A DNA stretch of 60,094 bases, filler included, from 10 parts of 10 records of this genome joined end to end with filler, not necessarily neighbours in it, one strand, 5' to 3'; positions 5,936 to 55,045 are shown, numbered from the whole stretch's first letter. Numbers and translations are program-made. The notes: generated from the letters alone by a model not told the origin.

Positions 5936-6128
5936 CTCAATCCGCGAGCTGTTTCGCGCTGCTACATATCTTCCGGGACGATCACCAGGGCGCCCATGNN
6001 NNNNNNNNNNNNNNNNNNNNNNNNNNNNNNNNNNNNNNNNNNTTAATTAATTAANNNNNNNNNNNNNNNNNNNNNNNNNNNNNNNNNNNNNNNNNNNNGG
6101 TCTGTTCATAAAAACGGACCCGGGGAAA

Positions 6129-9638: not shown

Positions 9639-11398
9639 CCGGCATCAGGCCTGCCTTGCTGGAGATCCGGGATCTCTGTCTGGACTATGGACAGGTAGAT
9701 AATTCTGTCCCGGCACTGGACCGCATCCATCTAACCTTGAACCCGGGGGAAAGCCTGGGGATTATCGGGGAGTCCGGATGCGGCAAGACCAGTCTTGCCA
9801 TGGCCGTTATGGGGCTGTGCACCCATGCCCGGGTTTCCGGTTCCATCCGGTTCAAGGGCAAGGATTTGACCTGCCTTACAGAAAAGGACCTGGCCTGCCT
9901 GCGATGGAACAAGATTGCCCTGGTGTTCCAGAACAGCCAGGAGGTATTCAATCCGGTTCTGACCCTGGGAGAGCAGGTGACCGAGGCGTTAGGTACCCAT
10001 CTGGGACTTGCCGGGGCTGCGGCAGACAAACGGGCGGCCCAATTGTTTGGCCTGGTGGGCCTGGACCCTGTCTGGTGCAATGCCTTTGCCCATCAGCTTT
10101 CGGGAGGTATGCGCCAGCGGGTGCTCATGGCCATGGCCGTCAGCTGCGAGCCCGAGTTGCTCATTGTGGACGAGCCTTTTACCGCCCTGGATGCCCAATC
10201 CAAAGAATCCATGATGGAATTGCTCTTGTCCCTTCAGGAACAAATGGGGTTTGCCATGATTCTTATCTCCCACAGCATGCCGGCCATTGCCCGGCTCACC
10301 TCCCGAACCCTGACCCTGTATGCCGGCCAGGTGGTGGAGGAAGGACCCACCAAGGTCCTGCTGGCCGATCCCTGGCACCCCTATACCCGGGGTTTGATCA
10401 ATGCCTGCCCGGAATTTTACGGATTCAAAGACCTTTGGGGCATTGGGGGTTCCCCGTCCATTCCGGGCCAGTCACCGGGCTGCCCCTTTAACCCCCGCTG
10501 TGTCCAGAAAGGCCCGGATTGTCATAAGCACCGTCCGAAATTAACGGCAGCCGGCCCGGACCGGAAGGTGGCCTGCCACAAGGGGGGCATTGAAATTCTT
10601 CTGGAAGCAAGGGGGCTTACAAAGACCTATGTCCTGAATACCGCCATCATCCGGGCGGTACAACAGGTGGACCTGAGGGTGAAAACCGGGGAAGTCGTGG
10701 CCTTGGTGGGAGCGTCCGGCTCAGGGAAATCCACCCTGGCACATCTGCTGGTCCAAATGGAAACCCCGGATAGAGGCCGGGTCATTTTTGAGGGCCGGCG
10801 TGTCGCGGGCATGGAAGCCACGGCCTGCATGGAAGGCATGCAAATGGTGTTTCAGGACCCTGCCCAAGCCGTCAGCCCCAGGCTGACCGTGCTCTCTGCA
10901 GTACGCGAACCCCTGGACATCATGGGATGGAAAGACCGGGATGCACGGGACCGAAAGGCCCTGGCATCTTTGACCTCTGTGCATCTGCCATCTGATCCCG
11001 AATTTTTAAAACGCCCCTGCCATGCCTTAAGCGGCGGGCAGCGCCAGCGCCTCTCCGTGGCCAGGGCCATGGTCACTGACCCCAAATTGCTCATTGCCGA
11101 CGAAATCACAGCCATGCTGGACCCCTCTGCCCAGGCCGTACTGCTTCGCCAACTCAAAGGGCTCCAGAATGAAAAGGGATTTTCCATGCTGTTTATCACC
11201 CATGACCTTCACCTGGCGCGAAAGATCGCGGACCAAGCCTATGTTCTGGACAACGGCGTGGTTATTTCCCGGGGCGCAGGGTTTGAAGTGTTCAGCAGCA
11301 AGGTCCCAGCTCATCCGGCCCGGTCCACTGCGGCACGGCCGGTCACCCATCCTCCTTTGGGAGTACCCATATTTTCAGGAAAGGAAAAATTCGCATGA
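9635..11398 (+). CDS. ABC transporter ATP-binding protein with two fused NBDs (DppD/DppF-like)
   Basis: GESGCGKT/LSGGM and GASGSGKS/LSGGQ; Cys-rich oligopeptide-ABC motif between the domains; ATGA overlap. Confidence 0.92.
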   Translation: MTGIRPALLEIRDLCLDYGQVDNSVPALDRIHLTLNPGESLGIIGESGCGKTSLAMAVMGLCTHARVSGSIRFKGKDLTCLTEKDLACLRWNKIALVFQNSQEVFNPVLTLGEQVTEALGTHLGLAGAAADKRAAQLFGLVGLDPVWCNAFAHQLSGGMRQRVLMAMAVSCEPELLIVDEPFTALDAQSKESMMELLLSLQEQMGFAMILISHSMPAIARLTSRTLTLYAGQVVEEGPTKVLLADPWHPYTRGLINACPEFYGFKDLWGIGGSPSIPGQSPGCPFNPRCVQKGPDCHKHRPKLTAAGPDRKVACHKGGIEILLEARGLTKTYVLNTAIIRAVQQVDLRVKTGEVVALVGASGSGKSTLAHLLVQMETPDRGRVIFEGRRVAGMEATACMEGMQMVFQDPAQAVSPRLTVLSAVREPLDIMGWKDRDARDRKALASLTSVHLPSDPEFLKRPCHALSGGQRQRLSVARAMVTDPKLLIADEITAMLDPSAQAVLLRQLKGLQNEKGFSMLFITHDLHLARKIADQAYVLDNGVVISRGAGFEVFSSKVPAHPARSTAARPVTHPPLGVPIFSGKEKFA

Positions 11399-11506
11399 AA
11401 CGTATTNNNNNNNNNNNNNNNNNNNNNNNNNNNNNNNNNNNNNNNNNNNNTTAATTAATTAANNNNNNNNNNNNNNNNNNNNNNNNNNNNNNNNNNNNNN
11501 NNNNNN

Positions 11507-12266
11507 CGGCAGCGAGGCGACCAAGAACGCGGTCCTCAGTTCACGCCGATCCGACGGTTTCAAGAAGTCGTTCCGGGACGATGCGTTGGTCGCCCAGGTC
11601 GCCATCGTCGATTCCGAACTGCTGGCGACCTGCCCGGCCGGCCTGATCGCCGCCAACGGCATGGATGCCTTCACCCAGTTGCTGGAATCCTTCGTGTCGG
11701 TGCGCGCCAATCCGCTGACCGACGCCCTCGCCTGGTCCGGCCTTGAAGCCTTCGGGCGTGGTTTTTTCAATGCCTGGAAAGGCGCCGGAAAGGATGACGA
11801 CAAAGCCGCTGCCGGCCGCGCCGACACCGCTTATGCTTCGCTGATATCGGGCATTACCCTGGCCCAGGTCGGACTTGGCTCGGTACATGGGCTGGCCTCG
11901 CCGCTGGGCGCTTATTTCCCGGTTCCGCACGGTACCGTCTGCGGCACCCTGGTCGGGGTGGCGACCGAAGTGAACATCCGGGCGCTGAAGGCGCGCCTTC
12001 CGGACAGCCCGGCATTGGTGAAATATGCCCGCGTCGGCCGTCTTCTAAGCGGCAAGGCGGCTTTGCAAAAAGAAGACGCCCTGGCGGCGTTGATCGAGAC
12101 CCTTGGACGCTGGATCGACGATCTCGGTATTTCCCGCCTCGGCGAATTCGGAATGACCGAGGCCGATGTCGCGTCCGTCGCGGCGGCATCGATGCCGGGC
12201 ATGAAATCCAATCCCGTAATGCCGACCGAAGCGGAAGTATCCGAGCTTCTGCAGCGTCGCCTCTGA
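11507..12266 (+). CDS. Iron-containing alcohol dehydrogenase (5'-truncated)
   Basis: GSEATKNAV, GMDAFTQLLES, GSVHGLASPLG, PHG metal-ligand region. Confidence 0.9.
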
Positions 12267-17959: not shown

Positions 17960-18059
17960 NNNNNNNNNNNNNNNNNNNNNNNNNNNNNNNNNNNNNNNNN
18001 NNNTTAATTAATTAANNNNNNNNNNNNNNNNNNNNNNNNNNNNNNNNNNNNNNNNNNNN

Positions 18060-23514: not shown

Positions 23515-23614
23515 NNNNNNNNNNNNNNNNNNNNNNNNNNNNNNNNNNNNNNNNNNNNTTAATTAATTAANNNNNNNNNNNNNNNNNNNNNNNNNNNNNN
23601 NNNNNNNNNNNNNN

Positions 23615-28802: not shown

Positions 28803-28902
28803 NNNNNNNNNNNNNNNNNNNNNNNNNNNNNNNNNNNNNNNNNNNNTTAATTAATTAANNNNNNNNNNNNNNNNNNNNNNNNNNNNNNNNNNNNNNNNNN
28901 NN

Positions 28903-35646: not shown

Positions 35647-36439
35647 NNNNNNNNNNNNNNNNNNNNNNNNNNNNNNNNNNNNNNNNNNNNTTAATTAATT
35701 AANNNNNNNNNNNNNNNNNNNNNNNNNNNNNNNNNNNNNNNNNNNNGCCCTGTTTAATTTTCTCTGGGACAAAGATTAGGATCCTTAATAGATTTTTTCA
35801 TGGAATCAGGTCAAACAAATGATTACGGGATAGGTACGTCTATACAATGCCAAAAGAGGGTGTTTTTGACCAACTCGAGCCATTCGGACGATAACTTGAG
35901 CTTAAAATAGACTCATCCGATAAAAAAACTTCCCCGAATTGCCAATGCGAAATTTTGCAAAAAATAGGCCGTGGATTTGGGAAATTTAGGTTTACTTTAA
36001 AATCTACGCCTGATAAATGATAAATAGATTGTTTGATTTTTATTAAGGTTGTTCCGGATATCATATCCAGTCTCCAAGATATTCCGGCACCTGATTTCAC
36101 AATTCATCAGAAATTCTGACTCCCACTCAAGATCGGGCAATATCGAACACAATTGATGTTCGAATCAACACAATCGTCCGGAAAAAGCAGTGGCGTCCAT
36201 TGAATATTAACAGATAATGGCTGCTGGAAGCTAAACCGCTTGAAACGCATCAGCACAATCGTTCTCATTTTATCTGATGGCAGACCTGTTTTATGACAAC
36301 CGGGGTGTCGGCAGGACCTGGAAAACAGGCCGTCATACAAAAAAGCACTGCAGCTTTTATACAACTTGAATCATAGGTGTTAGGAGTTTTATTTCAGGCG
36401 TTTCACTCGTATGTATGACATTTTAAAAAGAGGTGTACT

Positions 36440-38524
36440 ATGGAAAAACAGGGAGACGGCAGACAATCTTCTCACAACACTTTGGATAACACTCGGGCGG
36501 CTGTCTCAAAAGCAGTGTCCCGGGGTGCAAAGGGATCTGCCTTTGCGACATGCCAGGCACATCGCCTTGCCGTTGCAGCGGCCCGCAGCGCCAATTTCTC
36601 CATTGAGATCGACCCAGGAATTCAGCATGGTGTGATGGATGGTACACGGCTGGTCAGGGATATGGACACCTTGAGCCGGCAGCTTGAGAATCCCCTGACA
36701 GCAGCCGGTGCACCAGTAGAGGTTCACACATCAGAGAATTATAAAATATACCAATGCCTCAGGAACATGCCCAACTGCATCAAATCAATGGAAGTCACCA
36801 GGGGGGACACCGGCAGCAGCATCGGAACCAACCGGCCACTGGACAATACCATCTGTGTGGCCATTCATCATTTAGATGATAAAACCTATGGCGGGTTATG
36901 CGTTCTGCGGGAATGGGGTGCCATTGACATGGCAGCCGTCTTTGTCGGATATAATCCCCTCCAGAATACGATCTGGCGGGAAATGATCGATGATATTCCG
37001 GACGCGCTTTTCCGGGCCTGCATACTCCAGTCGACCCAGCCGGCTCATGATGCACCGGGATGGGCCGAAGGCATTTACCAGATCGTCCGGGACTTCAGCA
37101 AGTTTCCCGCGGGCAGGTCTCTTCCTGAAGATCAGTTTAACCGGATATTCAACGGGGATGACACAACGATCACCCCCGACGGAAAACCGCTGACATTTTT
37201 CAAGGCCCAGCGCAGCCTTGCCGCATATAATTTTCTTCAGGCAGCCGCCCGTGCACATCAGGCCCAAAAACAGGTGTTCGTCTGGGAAGACGGCGGCTAT
37301 CTCAATCCCATTATCGACCAGGCAATCCATGACAATATCTCGGTTGCCATGTTCAGAAAAATCCACATGGTACCCGAGGACCCGGAAACAGACAGCATCC
37401 TTGGACACAATTTTGCCAACGCTATTGCCAATGTATTCATCGGCACCGTTGAACTGACACGTAACGGGTATGACATGAGTGCCGCCATTGCCGAAGAGCG
37501 GCAAATGGAAACCCGTTTTTTTTCCATCGCAGCCTCATATGAAAAAGTCATGCTCGAAGGGGATTCCATAGCCATTGCATGTATCAATGCCATGACCCAG
37601 GTCCTTTACTCCACCGGATACAGCCTTCGGGACAGAAATGTTCTGGTGATAGGCGCACGGGGAAATCTGGGGCGGCTGAGTGTCGGACATCTGGTTAACA
37701 TTCTTCAGACGGCAGGGGATCAGCTGTGGGGCTGTGATCTGAAACTGGATTGGCCGAGCCCTGTGCCCGGCTCCATACCGGAATGGGCAATGTGGTCTGC
37801 CTGTGATGTTCCTCTGGAGGGTGTGGCCGGCGAGGTGGCGGCATATAAAGATCTGGATGCAGATGTCCGCTGCAATCTTGATGTGATCCTTGGGTGGACC
37901 GGCGGCCCCAGGACGGTGACAGAAAAAGATCCGGTCACGGGGGCGGTTACCAGATCTGATTACCAGACCATAACGGGTCAGGATGTTGCCGAGTGGCTCA
38001 CCATGGGGGAACAAAAATCACGCCTCTACCTGGTTTCCGGCAGTACCAAAACGGTTGAGTTTTCAGATGTACTCAAGTGGATCGAAGATATTTTAAATCA
38101 ACCGTCAGATGAGCGCGAGATAAACGGTATTGCCCTGGAAGATTTCATTCCGGGACCGATACCGGATCAACTGTCCATTGCAGCGGTCACCCAGATGTTG
38201 CCGGATCAGAAAGATGTCCCAAAACAGATCAAGCGCAATTTCGGAACACAGTTTACATTTAAGTTCAGGCAAAACGACAGCCTTGTGGAAAAAACCATAT
38301 ACCTGGTTAACAACACGATGCCGGTTAATTTTATGTATTATGGTACACCCACCGAGATTATGGATCTGACCTACAGCCAGGTTTCCAGTTGTGCCGTGGC
38401 CTTGATTGAAAACCAGAACGCCCCGAATGGTGTTTATCCGACTGACTATGACAGGAATGCCACTGACCATGTTTATCTCGGGCAGCATCTTGACAAGGAT
38501 TATCCGTTTCCTCCGTCCCTGTAG
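36440..38524 (+). CDS. Divergent S-adenosylhomocysteine hydrolase-fold (AHCY-like) NAD-binding protein, paralog 1
   Basis: AGAGGTG RBS; motifs in AHCY order: NMP, IHH, EDGGY, GTVELTRNG, SYEKVMLE, GARGNLG, GCD, VNFMYYGTPTE. Confidence 0.7.
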   Translation: MEKQGDGRQSSHNTLDNTRAAVSKAVSRGAKGSAFATCQAHRLAVAAARSANFSIEIDPGIQHGVMDGTRLVRDMDTLSRQLENPLTAAGAPVEVHTSENYKIYQCLRNMPNCIKSMEVTRGDTGSSIGTNRPLDNTICVAIHHLDDKTYGGLCVLREWGAIDMAAVFVGYNPLQNTIWREMIDDIPDALFRACILQSTQPAHDAPGWAEGIYQIVRDFSKFPAGRSLPEDQFNRIFNGDDTTITPDGKPLTFFKAQRSLAAYNFLQAAARAHQAQKQVFVWEDGGYLNPIIDQAIHDNISVAMFRKIHMVPEDPETDSILGHNFANAIANVFIGTVELTRNGYDMSAAIAEERQMETRFFSIAASYEKVMLEGDSIAIACINAMTQVLYSTGYSLRDRNVLVIGARGNLGRLSVGHLVNILQTAGDQLWGCDLKLDWPSPVPGSIPEWAMWSACDVPLEGVAGEVAAYKDLDADVRCNLDVILGWTGGPRTVTEKDPVTGAVTRSDYQTITGQDVAEWLTMGEQKSRLYLVSGSTKTVEFSDVLKWIEDILNQPSDEREINGIALEDFIPGPIPDQLSIAAVTQMLPDQKDVPKQIKRNFGTQFTFKFRQNDSLVEKTIYLVNNTMPVNFMYYGTPTEIMDLTYSQVSSCAVALIENQNAPNGVYPTDYDRNATDHVYLGQHLDKDYPFPPSL

Positions 38525-38583
38525 GCAGGGGATGCCGGATCAATATAGTGTGTACGTCAACCCAATAAGATAAGGAGACCATC

Positions 38584-39072
38584 ATGTCCATTGAAGACAC
38601 TTTTACAGGTGCTAAAATTGCTTATACACAGCTGTATGTATACGTAAACGCTGTTGCCGATGAGATCGGTATGGAGCGGGCGCTCGCCATACTGACCCGA
38701 ACCAATGAAAAAATGGGAACCGAGACAGGAAAAAAAATTAAAGAGCAGTCCGGCCAGGAGAAGTATGATGTCAAAAAGACGGCACTTAAAATCATGGAGG
38801 TGGCCAGAGGCATCGGCTCCATTGATGAGATCGTTGAGGAAAGTCCTGAAAAGGTGGTCACCATGACCGCAAGCGGAAAATGCACCAACTATGAGGCAGC
38901 CAGGGCTGCCGGCCTGGATGATCAGACCATTGAAGCCATTTGCGGTGCAGGATCTCTTCACTTTCTGAATGCCCTTGTCAAACAGCTGAATCCCGATCTG
39001 GGTTACCAGCTGGGCAAGTTCCGTTCGGGTCCGGAGGACTGCTGCCTTGAAAACATTGTTCTGGAAAGGTGA
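38584..39072 (+). CDS. Small Cys-containing protein, ATC-hydrolase/V4R-like
   Basis: TAAGGAG RBS; helical N-terminus, then KCTNYEA..GL....IC....LNP......CC pattern. Confidence 0.65.
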   Translation: MSIEDTFTGAKIAYTQLYVYVNAVADEIGMERALAILTRTNEKMGTETGKKIKEQSGQEKYDVKKTALKIMEVARGIGSIDEIVEESPEKVVTMTASGKCTNYEAARAAGLDDQTIEAICGAGSLHFLNALVKQLNPDLGYQLGKFRSGPEDCCLENIVLER

Positions 39073-39136
39073 TCATTTATTTTCAAGACCATGATCAGCA
39101 ATGAAGTCAATCAGCCCGAAAAAAAGGAGTTGAACC

Positions 39137-40966
39137 ATGGAACTGGAACAGACCCATTTAACACAAAGCCTCATACAGGCAGCCAGAAACGGCGTTGCAC
39201 TGGAGCATCCGTTTTCAATGATGTCACTGGATCCCCTCTCGCACCGGGAGCGCTTTATCCGCACAGCAGCCACAAAAGAATCAAAAAATAAATGCCGGGT
39301 GGATGATTACGTCCATAATATGCCTGCTATCGGCGGGCTGGTCGAGGCCGCGCGAAAAATTGGAGATCCGACACCGTTTGCAGATACCTCTATCTTTATG
39401 ATTCAACACATTACCGCCGAGGTTTTGGGCTGCATTTCCGTATTACGGTCGCTGGGCTGCAGGGATCTTACCACTGTCTTTGTCGGGTACAATGCTGATG
39501 CCGAAACCGCTTACCGGCCCGATTTGCTGGACATTCCTGAAAATGAAAGCCGCTGTTTTATTCTGGCAAACAGCACCACCGGCAGCAGTGCTCAGGCCCA
39601 GGGTATCTACTCGGTGAAACGGGACTTTACCATTCTGCCGGCAGCTGAGCAGGCCCTGATGCAGTATGACCAACTGGACATGGTGATGAAAGACCAAAAC
39701 ATGACCTTTATTCAGGCGATGAGGTGTCTGAGCATCTATGTCTTTTTTCAGCAGTTGTCCCGGTCCGGTCCTGCAGACCGTAAACTGATCGTACTTGAGG
39801 ATGGCGGGTATATCACCCCGATTCTCAATCAGTCGGCTATTGGAGGACTGACTGTGGAAGATGTCAGGCAAAAATATTATTGTCCGGCCGACATGGAGAC
39901 CGATAAACGGCTTGGCAGCAGACAGTGGATGTCAGATGTTCTGGATGACAATCAGGTGATTGGTAGCGTTGAGTATACACGGAACGGTTATGACCATGAT
40001 GTGGATACCCAGAACGACTGCGGCGGAATATTGTTCATACCCAATATGGCGGTGGCGGTCTCCTTTAAGAAGACACAGATCGAGGCAAGCGGCGTGGCAG
40101 AATCCTGCCTGAATGCTATTACTTCGGCAATGTATTCCTACGGCATGGTTCTCAAACATCGTAATGCCATGGTTATCGGTAGCCGTGGGAATATCGGCCG
40201 CTGGTTTATCCGTTCCCTTCATGCGCGCCTGGACCGCAGGGGACTTGACAATGATGCCAGGCCGGCAGTTATCGGGTGTGATATCAAAGTCGGTCGTGAA
40301 CAGGGACCTGACCCCATACCGTCCTGGCAGAAACGGGATGATGAGCCTTCCCTGCCCGATATTGACGAGCGCAGCTCCTATGATGATTTTGACCGGTCCT
40401 GCCTTCATGAACTGGATTTGGTGATAGGTATTACCGGCGGTCCAACACCGGGACATCAGACCATGGGCCGGGAACACCTGATTGACTGGTTGGTAAACGG
40501 CAGCAAAGAGACCCTTTTCATTGCATCCGGGTCCACCAAGACCGACGAGTTTCCCGACCTGCTGGCCTGGGTCAATGAAATCCTGGAAAAGGAGTCGCTG
40601 GATCTTTTGGGCCAGCCGGCCACCGTGGTTAAAAATGACCTGAGAGATGCCCTTTCCAAACGGAGTTTCGGGGCACGGTACCAGTTTGTGCTGCAAGAGA
40701 ACAACGGATCCGCCTCCAGAACCCGGAATGTTATTTTTCTGAATAATCTGATGCCCATTAATTTTCTTTTTTTCGGTGTCCCCACAGAGATAATAGACGA
40801 GACCCTGGCGCAACTGCTCTCGGTTACGGCAAACCTGCATCGTCAGGCACCCAAAATTCAGAGCCCCAGGGTATTTGCCATTGATTATGACAGGATCGCT
40901 TCTGAGAATGTATATGGCGCCATAATGCCGGAACGCGATATACCCATCCCCCCTTCGGTCAGCTAA
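39137..40966 (+). CDS. Divergent S-adenosylhomocysteine hydrolase-fold (AHCY-like) NAD-binding protein, paralog 2
   Basis: AAGGAG RBS; NMP, IQH, EDGGY, GSVEYTRNG, SFKKTQIE, GSRGNIG, GCD, INFLFFGVPTE. Confidence 0.7.
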   Translation: MELEQTHLTQSLIQAARNGVALEHPFSMMSLDPLSHRERFIRTAATKESKNKCRVDDYVHNMPAIGGLVEAARKIGDPTPFADTSIFMIQHITAEVLGCISVLRSLGCRDLTTVFVGYNADAETAYRPDLLDIPENESRCFILANSTTGSSAQAQGIYSVKRDFTILPAAEQALMQYDQLDMVMKDQNMTFIQAMRCLSIYVFFQQLSRSGPADRKLIVLEDGGYITPILNQSAIGGLTVEDVRQKYYCPADMETDKRLGSRQWMSDVLDDNQVIGSVEYTRNGYDHDVDTQNDCGGILFIPNMAVAVSFKKTQIEASGVAESCLNAITSAMYSYGMVLKHRNAMVIGSRGNIGRWFIRSLHARLDRRGLDNDARPAVIGCDIKVGREQGPDPIPSWQKRDDEPSLPDIDERSSYDDFDRSCLHELDLVIGITGGPTPGHQTMGREHLIDWLVNGSKETLFIASGSTKTDEFPDLLAWVNEILEKESLDLLGQPATVVKNDLRDALSKRSFGARYQFVLQENNGSASRTRNVIFLNNLMPINFLFFGVPTEIIDETLAQLLSVTANLHRQAPKIQSPRVFAIDYDRIASENVYGAIMPERDIPIPPSVS

Positions 40967-41097
40967 ATATGGCCGGTCCCGACCCAAAAGCCGGATAAGT
41001 GTTAAATTCTTATTTACAAAAAGACAGAGTTCCGGCCTTAAGATCAGGATAGACACGGGTTAAATCATGCCTCTGAAATTCAAAAGGAGTTTTACTG

Positions 41098-42969
41098 ATG
41101 AAAGCATATCTTGAAAATGAAAAAATTTCCGTACAGGCGGTTGCCGGGACCCATATTGTTCTCCTTGGATTCAATGCCTCTAATCAAGGCAGAAAAAAAC
41201 TGGCCGGGTTCGGTGTTTCCAGAAAAGATCAAAACACAGGCAAAATTAAAATTCTGAAAGGATACCGGCATTATCCTGAGGCAGACCCGAATGCCGATTC
41301 AATGACCAATCCCATTCAATCTTTTTTGTGGGGGGATTACTCGGCTAAACCGGGCCGCGGTTATACATACAGGATCGTCCCGTTCTACGGATATCCTGCA
41401 ATGGCAAAAACGGATGCCGCACTTGAAATAAAAGTTCAAACGGAAGATCCCGATCACAAAATCCATGCGGTATATTTTAACCGCGGGGTTGCCGGCAGCC
41501 AGTACTACAGCAGAAGGTTCCAGCCATATCGCAAATACTTTCTCAAGGAAAAATATGGCAGGCAATATTGGGAAGCATGCATCAGGCCCGAGGATGTGCC
41601 CGGCAATGCAGCATGGGACTGGCTGTCAAGGGGGCTGGAACAGGCCATGATCGGATTTGTCCGGCAGGCTGACGGTCCGGAATACAGTCTCTGCGCCTCA
41701 TTGTATGAGCTGACTTATGGCCCTGTACTGGACTCGTTTGCCCGGGCCATGGAGTCAGGCGCCGATGTTAAAATATTACATCACTCGAAAACAACAAAAA
41801 CAACTGTCATCAAACGGGGGAAACAGGTCGTCGTGCAAGGACTTGATGAGGTGGGTGCCGACGCTCAGGAGGCAATCAGGGCTGTGGGGATCAGAAAAAA
41901 AGAGAACACCCGAAAATGGTCGCGCGTTTTTATCAGAAGGACAAAGGCACAGATCTCCCACAACAAGTTTATTATTCTGCTCAAAAACGGCATACCGACC
42001 CAGGTGTGGACCGGATCAACCAATATGACTGCCGGTGGTATATTCGGCCAGTCCAACGTCGGGCATATTGTCAGGGACAAAAAGGTGGCAGCCAGCTACT
42101 TGGATTATTGGAAAGCCCTTTCCAAAGATCCAAAACGGAAGCCCCCAAGAAACGGGCAGGGGGAAAAAGGGATCAGCAACTGGAATGTCGATTATCAGAA
42201 AGATCTGATCGGCCGCCCTGAGCCAGGCTCGATCACGACCATTTTCAGTCCCCGAACCTCCACTGATATGCTTAAATGGTATGCCCGTCAACTGGGTGCG
42301 GCAAAAAATTCCATACATTTTACTGCGGCATTTGGCGTGAGCAGCGAAATCGGTGCTGAGCTGATCAAGATACCAAAAGATACCTTGAAGGGACCGGTTG
42401 TCCGGCAGGTGCTGCTGGAAAGCAGGAAAAGCAAAAAACAGTCAGAGAATCTCAAGTATCGAGCCAAACAGGCCGGGAAACCGATTCCCCTGGATTATTA
42501 CGATTTCATCAAAGTGTCCGGCAACCAGATTGCATACGGGGATCTGCTGGAAAACCGGGAGTTGGAAAAAGAGGCCGGCACACAGGAATTTTACCAGGAG
42601 TATCTGACCGGCCTGAACACATATGTGGATTATCTGCATACCAAATATCTTCTGGTGGACCCCCTGACCGACAACCCGCTGGTCATTTCTGGATCTGCCA
42701 ACTTCAGTGATGCCTCAACCGTGTCCAATGATGAAAACATGCTGGTGATAGAGGGCAATACACGTGTGGCAGACATGTTCCTGACAGAGTTTGTAAGATT
42801 GTTCCGCCACTTCAGCAACCGGAATATCCTCAACAACCTGAGTCGGGATGAACGCAAAAAAACGGTTTGCCTCTCCACAGATGATTCATGGACCGATAAA
42901 TATTACTCAAAGGGCACGCCCGAATATAATGAGCGGATTTTATTCGGCACTAAAAAAGCCGGGTATTAA
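41098..42969 (+). CDS. Phospholipase D/Nuc-superfamily protein with two HxK motifs
   Basis: HNKFIILL..TGSTN and HTKYLLVD..SGSANFS..NDEN; AAGGAG RBS; no signal peptide. Confidence 0.88.
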   Translation: MKAYLENEKISVQAVAGTHIVLLGFNASNQGRKKLAGFGVSRKDQNTGKIKILKGYRHYPEADPNADSMTNPIQSFLWGDYSAKPGRGYTYRIVPFYGYPAMAKTDAALEIKVQTEDPDHKIHAVYFNRGVAGSQYYSRRFQPYRKYFLKEKYGRQYWEACIRPEDVPGNAAWDWLSRGLEQAMIGFVRQADGPEYSLCASLYELTYGPVLDSFARAMESGADVKILHHSKTTKTTVIKRGKQVVVQGLDEVGADAQEAIRAVGIRKKENTRKWSRVFIRRTKAQISHNKFIILLKNGIPTQVWTGSTNMTAGGIFGQSNVGHIVRDKKVAASYLDYWKALSKDPKRKPPRNGQGEKGISNWNVDYQKDLIGRPEPGSITTIFSPRTSTDMLKWYARQLGAAKNSIHFTAAFGVSSEIGAELIKIPKDTLKGPVVRQVLLESRKSKKQSENLKYRAKQAGKPIPLDYYDFIKVSGNQIAYGDLLENRELEKEAGTQEFYQEYLTGLNTYVDYLHTKYLLVDPLTDNPLVISGSANFSDASTVSNDENMLVIEGNTRVADMFLTEFVRLFRHFSNRNILNNLSRDERKKTVCLSTDDSWTDKYYSKGTPEYNERILFGTKKAGY

Positions 42970-43085
42970 TATACTGGCTGATTTAAAGCTTAAGTTGAAT
43001 ATCCGAAGAATTTACATTGGGCGGATCATGGTTACCTATATCCCAAAGCCCAAGGTGACCTAAATTTTTTTCGAATTTCTGCCCT

Positions 43086-43436
43086 TCAGGGTATTATGTC
43101 GAGTTCTTCAATAAAGCTGATAATGTGCATCTGCCCCCAACATTTCGGGCAAATAAGCGGGCCCAACTCATAGATTTACTGAATCAAGCGAGCCCAACTC
43201 TGACGGAACTTTTTAAAAGAGATCTTGTTCGGGACAACGGCAGAAATGGTGTCATCCTGATCAGCCTTTCTTCTCGCCCCCGGGATTTATTCGAATACAG
43301 GCCATGATATCTCACCGTCTGTTCATATCGGCCGGGAATATGCGTCACCAGCCTTGCCAGCCAGTCCATGGCATTAAAAGGTTTCCGCGGCTTCCGGTCT
43401 TTCGATGTGTATACGACCTTGGCGGTACCGTCATGG
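43086..43436 (-). pseudogene. IS91-family (Y2 rolling-circle) transposase remnant, C-terminal part
   Basis: DWLARLVTHIP..VRYHGLYSNKSRG; frameshift near 43280; then SWARLIQ*IYELGPLICPKC..M.IISFIE with in-frame TAA at 43176-43178. Confidence 0.82.
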
Positions 43437-43629
43437 NNNNNNNNNNNNNNNNNNNNNNNNNNNNNNNNNNNNNNNNNNNNTTAATTAATTAANNNNNNNN
43501 NNNNNNNNNNNNNNNNNNNNNNNNNNNNNNNNNNNNGTGGCGCGAACGCGCCGGGTGAGGTGGGGATTGACGCCGAATTCGCCCGAATTCGGTGGACATC
43601 CCGGCAAGGGGCGACATATTAACCGGGTC

Positions 43630-49348: not shown

Positions 49349-49490
49349 CCGGTTGCGAGCGCAATCTCGAAAAAACCGATTGTCGCGCGGNNNNNNNNNN
49401 NNNNNNNNNNNNNNNNNNNNNNNNNNNNNNNNNNTTAATTAATTAANNNNNNNNNNNNNNNNNNNNNNNNNNNNNNNNNNNNNNNNNNNN

Positions 49491-54945: not shown

Positions 54946-55045
54946 NNNNNNNNNNNNNNNNNNNNNNNNNNNNNNNNNNNNNNNNNNNNTTAATTAATTA
55001 ANNNNNNNNNNNNNNNNNNNNNNNNNNNNNNNNNNNNNNNNNNNN

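Follow-up and report, generated by a model that had tools for sequence, protein, structure and literature searches.

The window analysed here (the whole stretch of DNA, 60,094 nucleotides with its filler) holds four co-oriented genes, P0001 to P0004, which raise the question of what task could unite two long, mutually related proteins, a small V4R-like protein and a phospholipase D (PLD)-family enzyme. An earlier note, made from the sequence, had read the two long proteins as enzymes with the fold of S-adenosylhomocysteine hydrolase (AHCY), dependent on nicotinamide adenine dinucleotide (NAD) and repurposed for another substrate, and had proposed either a nucleoside-modifying or salvage pathway or a defence module with the PLD as effector. 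The answer that we favour, at a probability of about 0.5, is a horizontally spread accessory operon for the salvage or modification of a small molecule (a nucleoside derivative or a liponucleotide-like compound), and not an immune system. We rank this small-molecule pathway above defence and above a chance assembly of genes; it is preferred to defence because the defence context is sparse and the wider protein family is coupled to dehydrogenases.

The two long proteins, P0001 (A-type) and P0003 (B-type), share 32% identity (192/607) over approximately 600 residues (E 6e-87), and their alignment contains every motif that the earlier note had listed for them as paralogs. Neither carries a Pfam family, with no AdoHcyase match at E values up to 1, and neither is matched above cut-off by an NCBIfam model: P0003 had no match at all, and the adenosylhomocysteinase model NF004005 reached 12.4 bits on P0001 against a cut-off of 275 (E 0.05). 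Single-sequence searches of the PDB with both proteins gave nothing useful; a profile of 35 family members found AHCYL and AHCY chains as its best PDB matches (3gvp, E 0.0031; 3mtg, E 0.0043), the former value applying to a match in three collinear stretches. P0003 was modelled with AlphaFold2 on the 35-sequence alignment, with a mean predicted local distance difference test score (pLDDT) of 87.3 and a predicted template modelling score of 0.87. All top matches listed by a Foldseek search of this model against the PDB were S-adenosylhomocysteine hydrolases (best E 6.0e-15), and VIA-align superposed residues 34-596 on Thermotoga AHCY 3x2f with a Z score of 28.1 and a root-mean-square deviation of 2.8 Å (372/406 aligned). 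The full two-domain AHCY fold is thus confirmed at the level of the predicted model for P0003, and by homology to P0003 it would hold for P0001 as well. The two large proteins are members of a previously undescribed, deeply diverged branch of the AHCY fold.

This branch is large. Relatives of P0003 numbered 180 in a word-seeded search, almost all of them metagenome proteins without a name, and a profile search of 1.84 billion cluster representatives (50% identity) gave 908 matches at E<=1e-3 and 158 at E<=1e-30. When one genome per species was scanned, 216 of the 250 pattern-matched stretches coded for relatives, placing the family in at least 216 species genomes, mostly of Planctomycetota, Leptospira, and metagenome-assembled genomes (MAGs) of Desulfobacterota type and Chloroflexota. 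In the ESM Atlas, clusters of "hypothetical protein" came first, followed by AdoHcyase_NAD/2-Hacid_dh_C clusters. Members were also seen in eukaryote transcriptome sets (P0140, from the diatom Attheya septentrionalis, MMETSP; P0051, a EukProt entry), where contamination is possible. No relatives of P0003 were found in the plasmid and phage collections, none of P0001 in the plasmid collection, and IMG/VR contigs had no family member as far as that scan's peptide patterns reach. A quick tree (SH-aLRT support only) gave the A-type group a long stem and, as its sister, an "intermediate" group (L171, L172, P0043; loci are numbered with L), and put the B-type group among several clades of ~600 residues, apart from a separate ~800-residue clade; since they fall into separate deep clades of this tree, P0001 and P0003 are no recent duplicates. 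Bacteroidota, Bacillota, a Deltaproteobacteria MAG and Herpetosiphonaceae all carry orthologues of the A-type, with identities of 62-72%. The literature searches, which took in the main text of preprints on defence modularity, turned up no account of a bacterial family like this one.

Which chemistry might such proteins carry out? Residues are given in P0003 numbering, and conservation was counted over the 35 family members (13 sequences for the A-type set). The correspondence with AHCY is a motif-level one, drawn from hmmsearch and hhalign, and is statistically weak: hhalign of the family against three canonical AHCYs, which come from genomes also carrying the family and were used for motif correspondence only, aligned HxTxE, (E/D)DGG, ExT..G, SxxKxxx(E/D) and the glycine loop with a probability of 15.7%. 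According to PMC4647836, the 2'-OH in AHCY is held by Glu156 and Asp190 and the 3'-OH by Thr157 and Lys186, and the 5'-OH, or the water that attacks, is bound by His55, Asp131 and His301; Lys186 serves as acid/base at O3' and His55 as general base, and Asp131 protonates C4'; and the adenine is contacted by Thr57, by Glu59 and by His353 through its main chain. By motif alignment, the counterparts of His55, Asp131, Thr157 and Lys186 would be H91, D222, T281 and K312, and that of Asp190 would be E316 (Glu instead of Asp), all five invariant in 35/35 sequences. In P0001, His55 and Lys186 would correspond to H144 and K369. The same alignment matches Glu156 with position 280, which is occupied by His (24), Tyr (7), Leu (3) or Trp (1). 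Position 548 (Val 28, Thr 5, n=35) was matched with His353 by motif order and not by a tool alignment; no counterpart of His301 was found, as the S464-G-S-T-K468 block, also placed by motif order, holds no invariant His. The "LVNLG" of the family, again placed by motif order and not by a tool alignment, is presumably the counterpart of Asn346 in AHCY.

Altogether 34 residues are invariant in all 35 members, including H91, E221-D222-G-G, E279, T281, K312, E316 and N542, and the same invariance was observed for the glycine loop G348-x-x-G351-x-x-G354 and for D382 after the second Rossmann strand. At the adenine-contact positions, 93 (counterpart of Thr57) is Thr in 28, Asp in 5 and Ser in 2 members, and 95 (counterpart of Glu59) is Glu in 29, Lys in 5 and Asp in 1. 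The B-type protein P0003 keeps the His-x-Thr-x-Glu that corresponds to the adenine contacts of AHCY, and its substrate is therefore probably an adenosyl compound; in the A-type this motif is replaced by His-x-Asp-x-Lys (H144, D146 and K148 of P0001, invariant in 13/13), and the Asp and Lys at these positions suggest that its substrate probably carries another base or moiety. From these residues we infer that the two large proteins would be catalytically active with NAD, each oxidising the 3' position of its own ribosyl substrate in the manner of AHCY. The data are best read as the earlier note proposed, with NAD enzymes of the AHCY fold turned to another substrate, as the predicted fold agrees with it and the Rossmann glycine loop and most ribose-side catalytic residues appear to be kept.

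The small protein P0002 was assigned by its model (pLDDT 92.6), whose top Foldseek matches were Bet3/TRAPP subunits and the phenol-sensor domains of DmpR, PoxR and MopR (E 7.7e-4 to 1e-2, TM scores 0.57-0.65). The Pfam family ATC_hydrolase (PF14196) touches P0002 at E 2.8e-4 and 22.2 bits, under its cut-off of 28.1; the orthologues at L007 (28.4 bits) and L011 (35.3 bits) pass it, and those at L001 and L021 have no match at E 1e-5. On the predicted structure P0002 is a V4R/Bet3-fold protein, in line with the V4R/ATC-hydrolase-like label given to it earlier. Its residues C100, C120, C154 and E156 are invariant in 10/10 sequences, and the three cysteines, perhaps with the glutamate, might form a zinc site, as in the phenol sensors.

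The V4R gene is closely tied to the A-type. It lies adjacent or fused to the A-type orthologue (62-72% identity) at 11 of the 12 loci that carry one (L001, L007, L008, L011, L015, L017, L021, L164, L180, L181 and L191, L164 being nearly identical to L001); at the twelfth, L019, a sensitive profile search found no V4R gene within 10 kb. In two Ruminococcus records both parts form a single open reading frame (ORF), of 829 residues at L015 and 797 at L181, and a full V4R domain stands at the C-terminus of 10 of 61 A-type database matches. In the Ruminococcus MAG of L008 the frame of the fused gene (L008:9686-12175) is broken into ORFs at 9686-10975 and 11261-12175, a true break or an assembly error. 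A V4R profile run against 430 proteins had no match outside the A-type fusions, and the N-terminal extension of the ~800-residue clade is not V4R-like. Adjacency almost everywhere and natural fusion in some genomes are strong evidence that the A-type and V4R proteins act together; they are an obligate unit that recurs across phyla.

The last protein, P0004, is the PLD-family enzyme announced by the earlier note: PLDc_2 matches it in two stretches (E 8.5e-19; 68.1 bits against a cut-off of 27), and both HKD motifs, H288/K290/G306-S-T-N309 and H514/K516/G532-S-A-N535, are intact and invariant in 23/23 sequences. They follow an N-terminal extension of ~120 residues. Its nearest solved sequences, the Nuc endonuclease 1byr (E 3.1e-7) and Zucchini/MitoPLD, match the second HKD motif only. 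The family is widespread (more than 2,500 matches among 8,000 scored candidates; at least 574 species genomes), with members named only "phospholipase D-like domain-containing protein", and relatives are present on rhizobial megaplasmids. In the neighbourhoods of its 80 best loci (L084-L163; 37-52% identity to P0004), no AHCY-like or V4R gene was found within 8 kb (0/80). Recurrent downstream genes at these loci encode a GMC oxidoreductase (20/80), a Ferritin-like protein (PF12902, 17/80), SRPBCC/Polyketide_cyc2 (14/80), a ~180-residue protein (18/80) and a 134-residue protein (16/80), with a Dyp peroxidase in some. These neighbours (for example, L091:8001-14281) look like an undescribed redox gene cluster that occurs across phyla.

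Do the four genes then belong together? The full order was found in Marinifilum flexuosum DSM 21950 (L001; identities of 72, 61, 76 and 68% for the four proteins) and in the near-identical metagenome locus L164. Four further records have A, B and PLD matches that agree in the length of the longest contig (15539, 8850, 54119, 18218), and equally indirect linkage was seen for A and PLD (longest contig 76470) and for a B-like protein and PLD (5926). At L180 an A-type and V4R pair has a divergently placed and very different PLD (23% identity); this gene (L180:1272-3080, minus strand) is split by a stop into ORFs of 369 and 226 residues and may be a pseudogene or reflect a sequencing error. The B-type orthologues at L002, L003 and L165 have neither PLD nor A-type beside them, and the B-type stands without the other modules at L002, L003 and L165-L170. 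The single system proposed in the earlier note is borne out in part: the A-type/V4R unit recurs, as does the full set in L001 and L164, but the PLD link does not extend to the best PLD loci and the B-type is often alone. Only among the closest relatives, Marinifilum flexuosum and a few metagenome contigs, is PLD linked to the other three.

One possible explanation for this pattern is that there is no single system, and that three modules (A-type with V4R, B-type, PLD) came together in a single lineage, on a mobile island, and have been co-inherited without sharing a pathway. Each module can indeed be found without the others, the A-type and V4R pair at L007, L011, L017, L021 and elsewhere, the B-type at the loci named above and the PLD at 80/80 of its best family loci; A and B lie in deep separate clades of the quick tree (SH-aLRT only), and the full set was directly seen only in L001 and L164. 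On the other hand, order, orientation and short gaps are shared with Marinifilum at only 61-76% protein identity, four more records link A, B and PLD, if indirectly, a second and very different PLD adjoins the A-type and V4R pair at L180, and no plus-strand terminator separates the four genes. We regard a chance assembly of this kind as unlikely.

The neighbourhoods of the wider family bear on the choice between metabolism and defence. In the ~800-residue clade, 87/159 loci (76/115 where there is enough upstream DNA) have an MDR/zinc-ADH-like gene immediately upstream in the same orientation, and the two domains are fused in P0127 (1280 residues); the pair is a second conserved two-gene unit. 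The MDR/zinc-ADH-like gene, a divergent one, codes for ~485 residues and often overlaps the start of the next (L024:7581-9041 with L024:9038-11491; also L018, L043, L058 and many others). A NUDIX gene follows in 17 loci of the Leptospira-type neighbourhood, and other family members are fused to Cupin_2 and SDR or to Cupin_5 and DUF952. A B-type orthologue (74% identity) opens the row at L002:9968-15112; a DEDDh/RNase_T exonuclease comes next, without a gap, and then a long thymidylate-synthase-family protein (363 residues), a 208-residue protein and an S-adenosylmethionine (SAM) methyltransferase; this neighbourhood looks nucleotide-centred.

As for the defence hypothesis, it supposes an anti-phage or conflict system in which a nucleoside-type signal, such as a shift in a SAM/S-adenosylhomocysteine (SAH)-like or NAD-derived metabolite during infection, is sensed or converted by the V4R and/or AHCY-fold proteins, and an effector of phospholipase or nuclease type, here the PLD, kills or arrests the cell. 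Its distribution would fit: it is patchy, with 62-72% identity across phyla, and genes for transposases, integrases or recombinases lie near L007, L008, L165, L169 and on the contig of P0001-P0004. So would the swapped, effector-like hydrolases, namely the PLD here and at L001, the 23%-identical one at L180, a PF04185 phosphoesterase upstream at L166, and at L171:7702-11914 a patatin-like phospholipase and a TIR protein that binds cyclic nucleotide monophosphates (PycTIR, E 2.2e-8), immediately upstream of an intermediate-type AHCY-fold gene and co-oriented with it. (L171 is flanked by a NACHT protein upstream on the other strand and a pyrroloquinoline quinone (PQQ) dehydrogenase downstream.) Moreover, the nearest matches of the HKD region of P0004 are DrmC and two nucleases, Nuc and Zucchini, and L008 has ThsB-like TIR genes, a TIR-SLOG protein and PDC-M50A ~2 kb upstream. 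Conversely, L008 was the only locus with a clear defence cluster (1/8) when 114 neighbours of eight A- or B-type loci were scanned. PADLOC models match none of the A-type, V4R and B-type proteins, and on P0004 their matches are local to one HKD motif: DrmC (E 2.8e-8) covers residues 509-555 only, some 45 residues, and the PADLOC-DB 2.0 matches to DrmC, ZacB, DpdK and PbeA together remain within 509-573. The main clade of the family is coupled or fused to dehydrogenases, a diatom homolog exists, and the usual neighbours of the PLD family are redox enzymes. With three of the four proteins unmatched by PADLOC and defence genes at one of eight scanned loci and at L171, the defence module with a PLD effector proposed earlier is not supported so far, and we consider it improbable.

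A modular variant of defence is conceivable too, in which this AHCY branch would be the core of a conflict system: V4R would sense a small ligand, hydrophobic or nucleoside in nature, the AHCY-fold enzymes would make or destroy a ribosyl signal with the help of NAD, and interchangeable effectors (two kinds of PLD, a phosphoesterase of the phospholipase C type, patatin, TIR) would attack membrane or nucleic acid. We hold it to be doubtful, somewhat more so than the plain form. Finally, that the AHCY-fold proteins are catalytically dead sensors or scaffolds like AHCYL1/IRBIT, an animal protein held to be catalytically dead, would fit the lost counterparts of Glu156, His301 and His353 and the altered glycine loop, but is very unlikely given the 34 residues, catalytic counterparts, glycine loop and acidic residue among them, invariant in 35/35 diverse members, a strictness typical of active sites, and the repeated fusion or coupling of the family to other enzymes.

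Under the small-molecule pathway that we favour, both AHCY-fold enzymes would use bound NAD to form a transient 3'-keto intermediate and would break or make a bond on the 5' side of the ribosyl group of a substrate other than SAH, the B-type acting on an adenosyl compound and the A-type on one with a different base or moiety. The V4R partner would bind a small, probably hydrophobic, ligand and serve as a substrate-presenting or regulatory subunit of the A-type. The PLD phosphodiesterase might free or transfer a phosphodiester-linked head group for the two AHCY-fold enzymes, which is the least-supported step. In favour of this pathway stands the metabolic flavour of the family, with its MDR coupling and fusion, cupin/SDR fusions, NUDIX neighbours and diatom homolog, together with the redox neighbours of the PLD family and the lack of relatives of the AHCY-fold proteins in the phage, plasmid and IMG/VR collections. 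Several points weigh against it. The identity of 62-72% across four phyla points to frequent transfer of the A-type, mobile-element genes lie near several loci, and L008 and L171 have defence genes close by; the PLD link is narrow, as seen from the 80 best PLD loci and from the B-type orthologues at L002, L003 and L165. The chemistry may differ from that of AHCY, as the family does not conserve the positions of Glu156, His301 and His353. The AHCY residues were mapped through weak profile alignments, with motif order as the guide after the glycine loop, and substrate, cofactor binding and activity are all predictions.

The window itself consists of ten contigs of 5.0-7.7 kb that were artificially joined, with 18 runs of 44 N; each of the nine joints is an N44-TTAATTAATTAA-N44 linker (Table 1). 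Genes on two sides of a linker are therefore no genomic neighbours, and the true context of the four genes is limited to contig 35747-43436 (7,690 bp), which is flanked by such linkers. Its GC content of 0.491 is the lowest of the ten (others 0.526-0.630). The layout described earlier was recovered from the ORFs and the DNA upstream of them: four co-oriented genes with gaps of 59, 64 and 131 bp, each start preceded by a purine-rich ribosome site of the AAGGAG or GAGG type, and some 690 bp of upstream DNA that is AT-rich in comparison with the contig. The promoter is presumed to lie within this leader, where consensus promoter matches were weak and fewer than in shuffled sequences. The terminator scan agrees with the absence of a terminator between the genes: shuffled sequences would lead one to expect 8.5 terminator-like sites in this region, and it has four, of which only that at 43272 is on the plus strand. 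Bacteroidota mostly lack AAGGAG-type Shine-Dalgarno sites; given the strong sites here, the host of the contig may belong to another phylum, though its closest relatives are Bacteroidota. The IS91-type transposase noted beside the genes was found as a Y2_Tnp piece (21.8 bits against a Pfam cut-off of 20.9) which holds the last 40 profile positions (141-180 of 183). Its description as "dead" is unsupported, since the end of the contig at 43436 cuts the piece.

Table 1. Coordinates of the features in the window (positions counted from its first nucleotide).
Feature	Position	Strand	Evidence or remark
P0001, A-type AHCY-fold protein, 694 aa	36440-38524	+	ORF; homology to P0003
P0002, V4R/Bet3-fold small protein, 162 aa	38584-39072	+	ORF; model and Foldseek
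P0003, B-type AHCY-fold protein, 609 aa	39137-40966	+	ORF; AlphaFold2 model and Foldseek
P0004, two-HKD PLD-superfamily enzyme, 623 aa	41098-42969	+	ORF; PLDc_2 E 8.5e-19
Contig start and AT-rich non-coding leader	35747-36439	.	693 bp, GC 0.391
Shine-Dalgarno site	36428-36439	+	ahead of P0001
Shine-Dalgarno site	38571-38583	+	ahead of P0002
Shine-Dalgarno site	39124-39136	+	ahead of P0003
Shine-Dalgarno site	41083-41097	+	ahead of P0004
IS91-family transposase, C-terminal piece	43187-43435	-	Y2_Tnp PF04986 E 2.1e-4; truncated at contig end
Linker	5999-6098		
Linker	11407-11506		
Linker	17960-18059		
Linker	23515-23614		
Linker	28803-28902		
Linker	35647-35746		
Linker	43437-43536		
Linker	49391-49490		
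Linker	54946-55045		

AHCY is commonly regarded as one enzyme, highly conserved and catalysing one reaction. The proteins described here share its fold and make up a deeply diverged family of their own, without a Pfam or NCBIfam model, whose subfamilies differ in their partners: a V4R protein, an MDR dehydrogenase, cupin/SDR fusions or phospholipase-type genes. With the residues for 3'-oxidation and for acid-base chemistry at C4'/C5' apparently kept, others changed and the partners so varied, the family is a promising place to look for new nucleoside chemistry assisted by NAD. A-type::V4R proteins fused in nature give biochemistry a convenient starting point, and the operon is directly testable since a cultured strain, Marinifilum flexuosum DSM 21950, has the same four genes.

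When compared with known systems, the large proteins resemble AHCY (PF05221/PF00670) in the whole two-domain fold, in the order of the motifs and in a Rossmann loop followed by an acidic residue. They differ from it in that the structural alignments are at 12-19% identity, with no Pfam or NCBIfam match over cut-off; in 150-260 additional residues, with N-terminal helices and a three-stranded insertion (~488-535) among them; and in a glycine loop that reads GxxGxxG against the canonical GxGxxG. Canonical AHCY co-occurs in 3 of 5 checked genomes carrying the new family, which is thus no replacement for it in those genomes. The animal AHCYL1/AHCYL2 (IRBIT) proteins are likewise diverged AHCY-fold proteins and give the best PDB sequence matches of the family profile; however, they are close AHCY paralogs that are recognised by the AHCY Pfam models, whereas the new family is far more divergent, mostly bacterial, and appears to keep the catalytic core. 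P0002 shares its predicted fold and conserved cysteines with the V4R/Bet3 proteins (DmpR, PoxR, MopR, Bet3, PF14196), but is a stand-alone protein of 162 residues or a C-terminal fusion to an AHCY-fold enzyme, and belongs to no transcription activator or TRAPP complex. P0004, lastly, has two intact HKD motifs and finds its best matches among solved sequences and PADLOC models in Nuc, Zucchini/MitoPLD and the DISARM protein DrmC. No DISARM partner genes were found on the 7.7-kb contig, and these matches span ~45-60 residues round one HKD motif, whereas P0004 is a 623-residue two-HKD protein with an N-terminal domain of its own.

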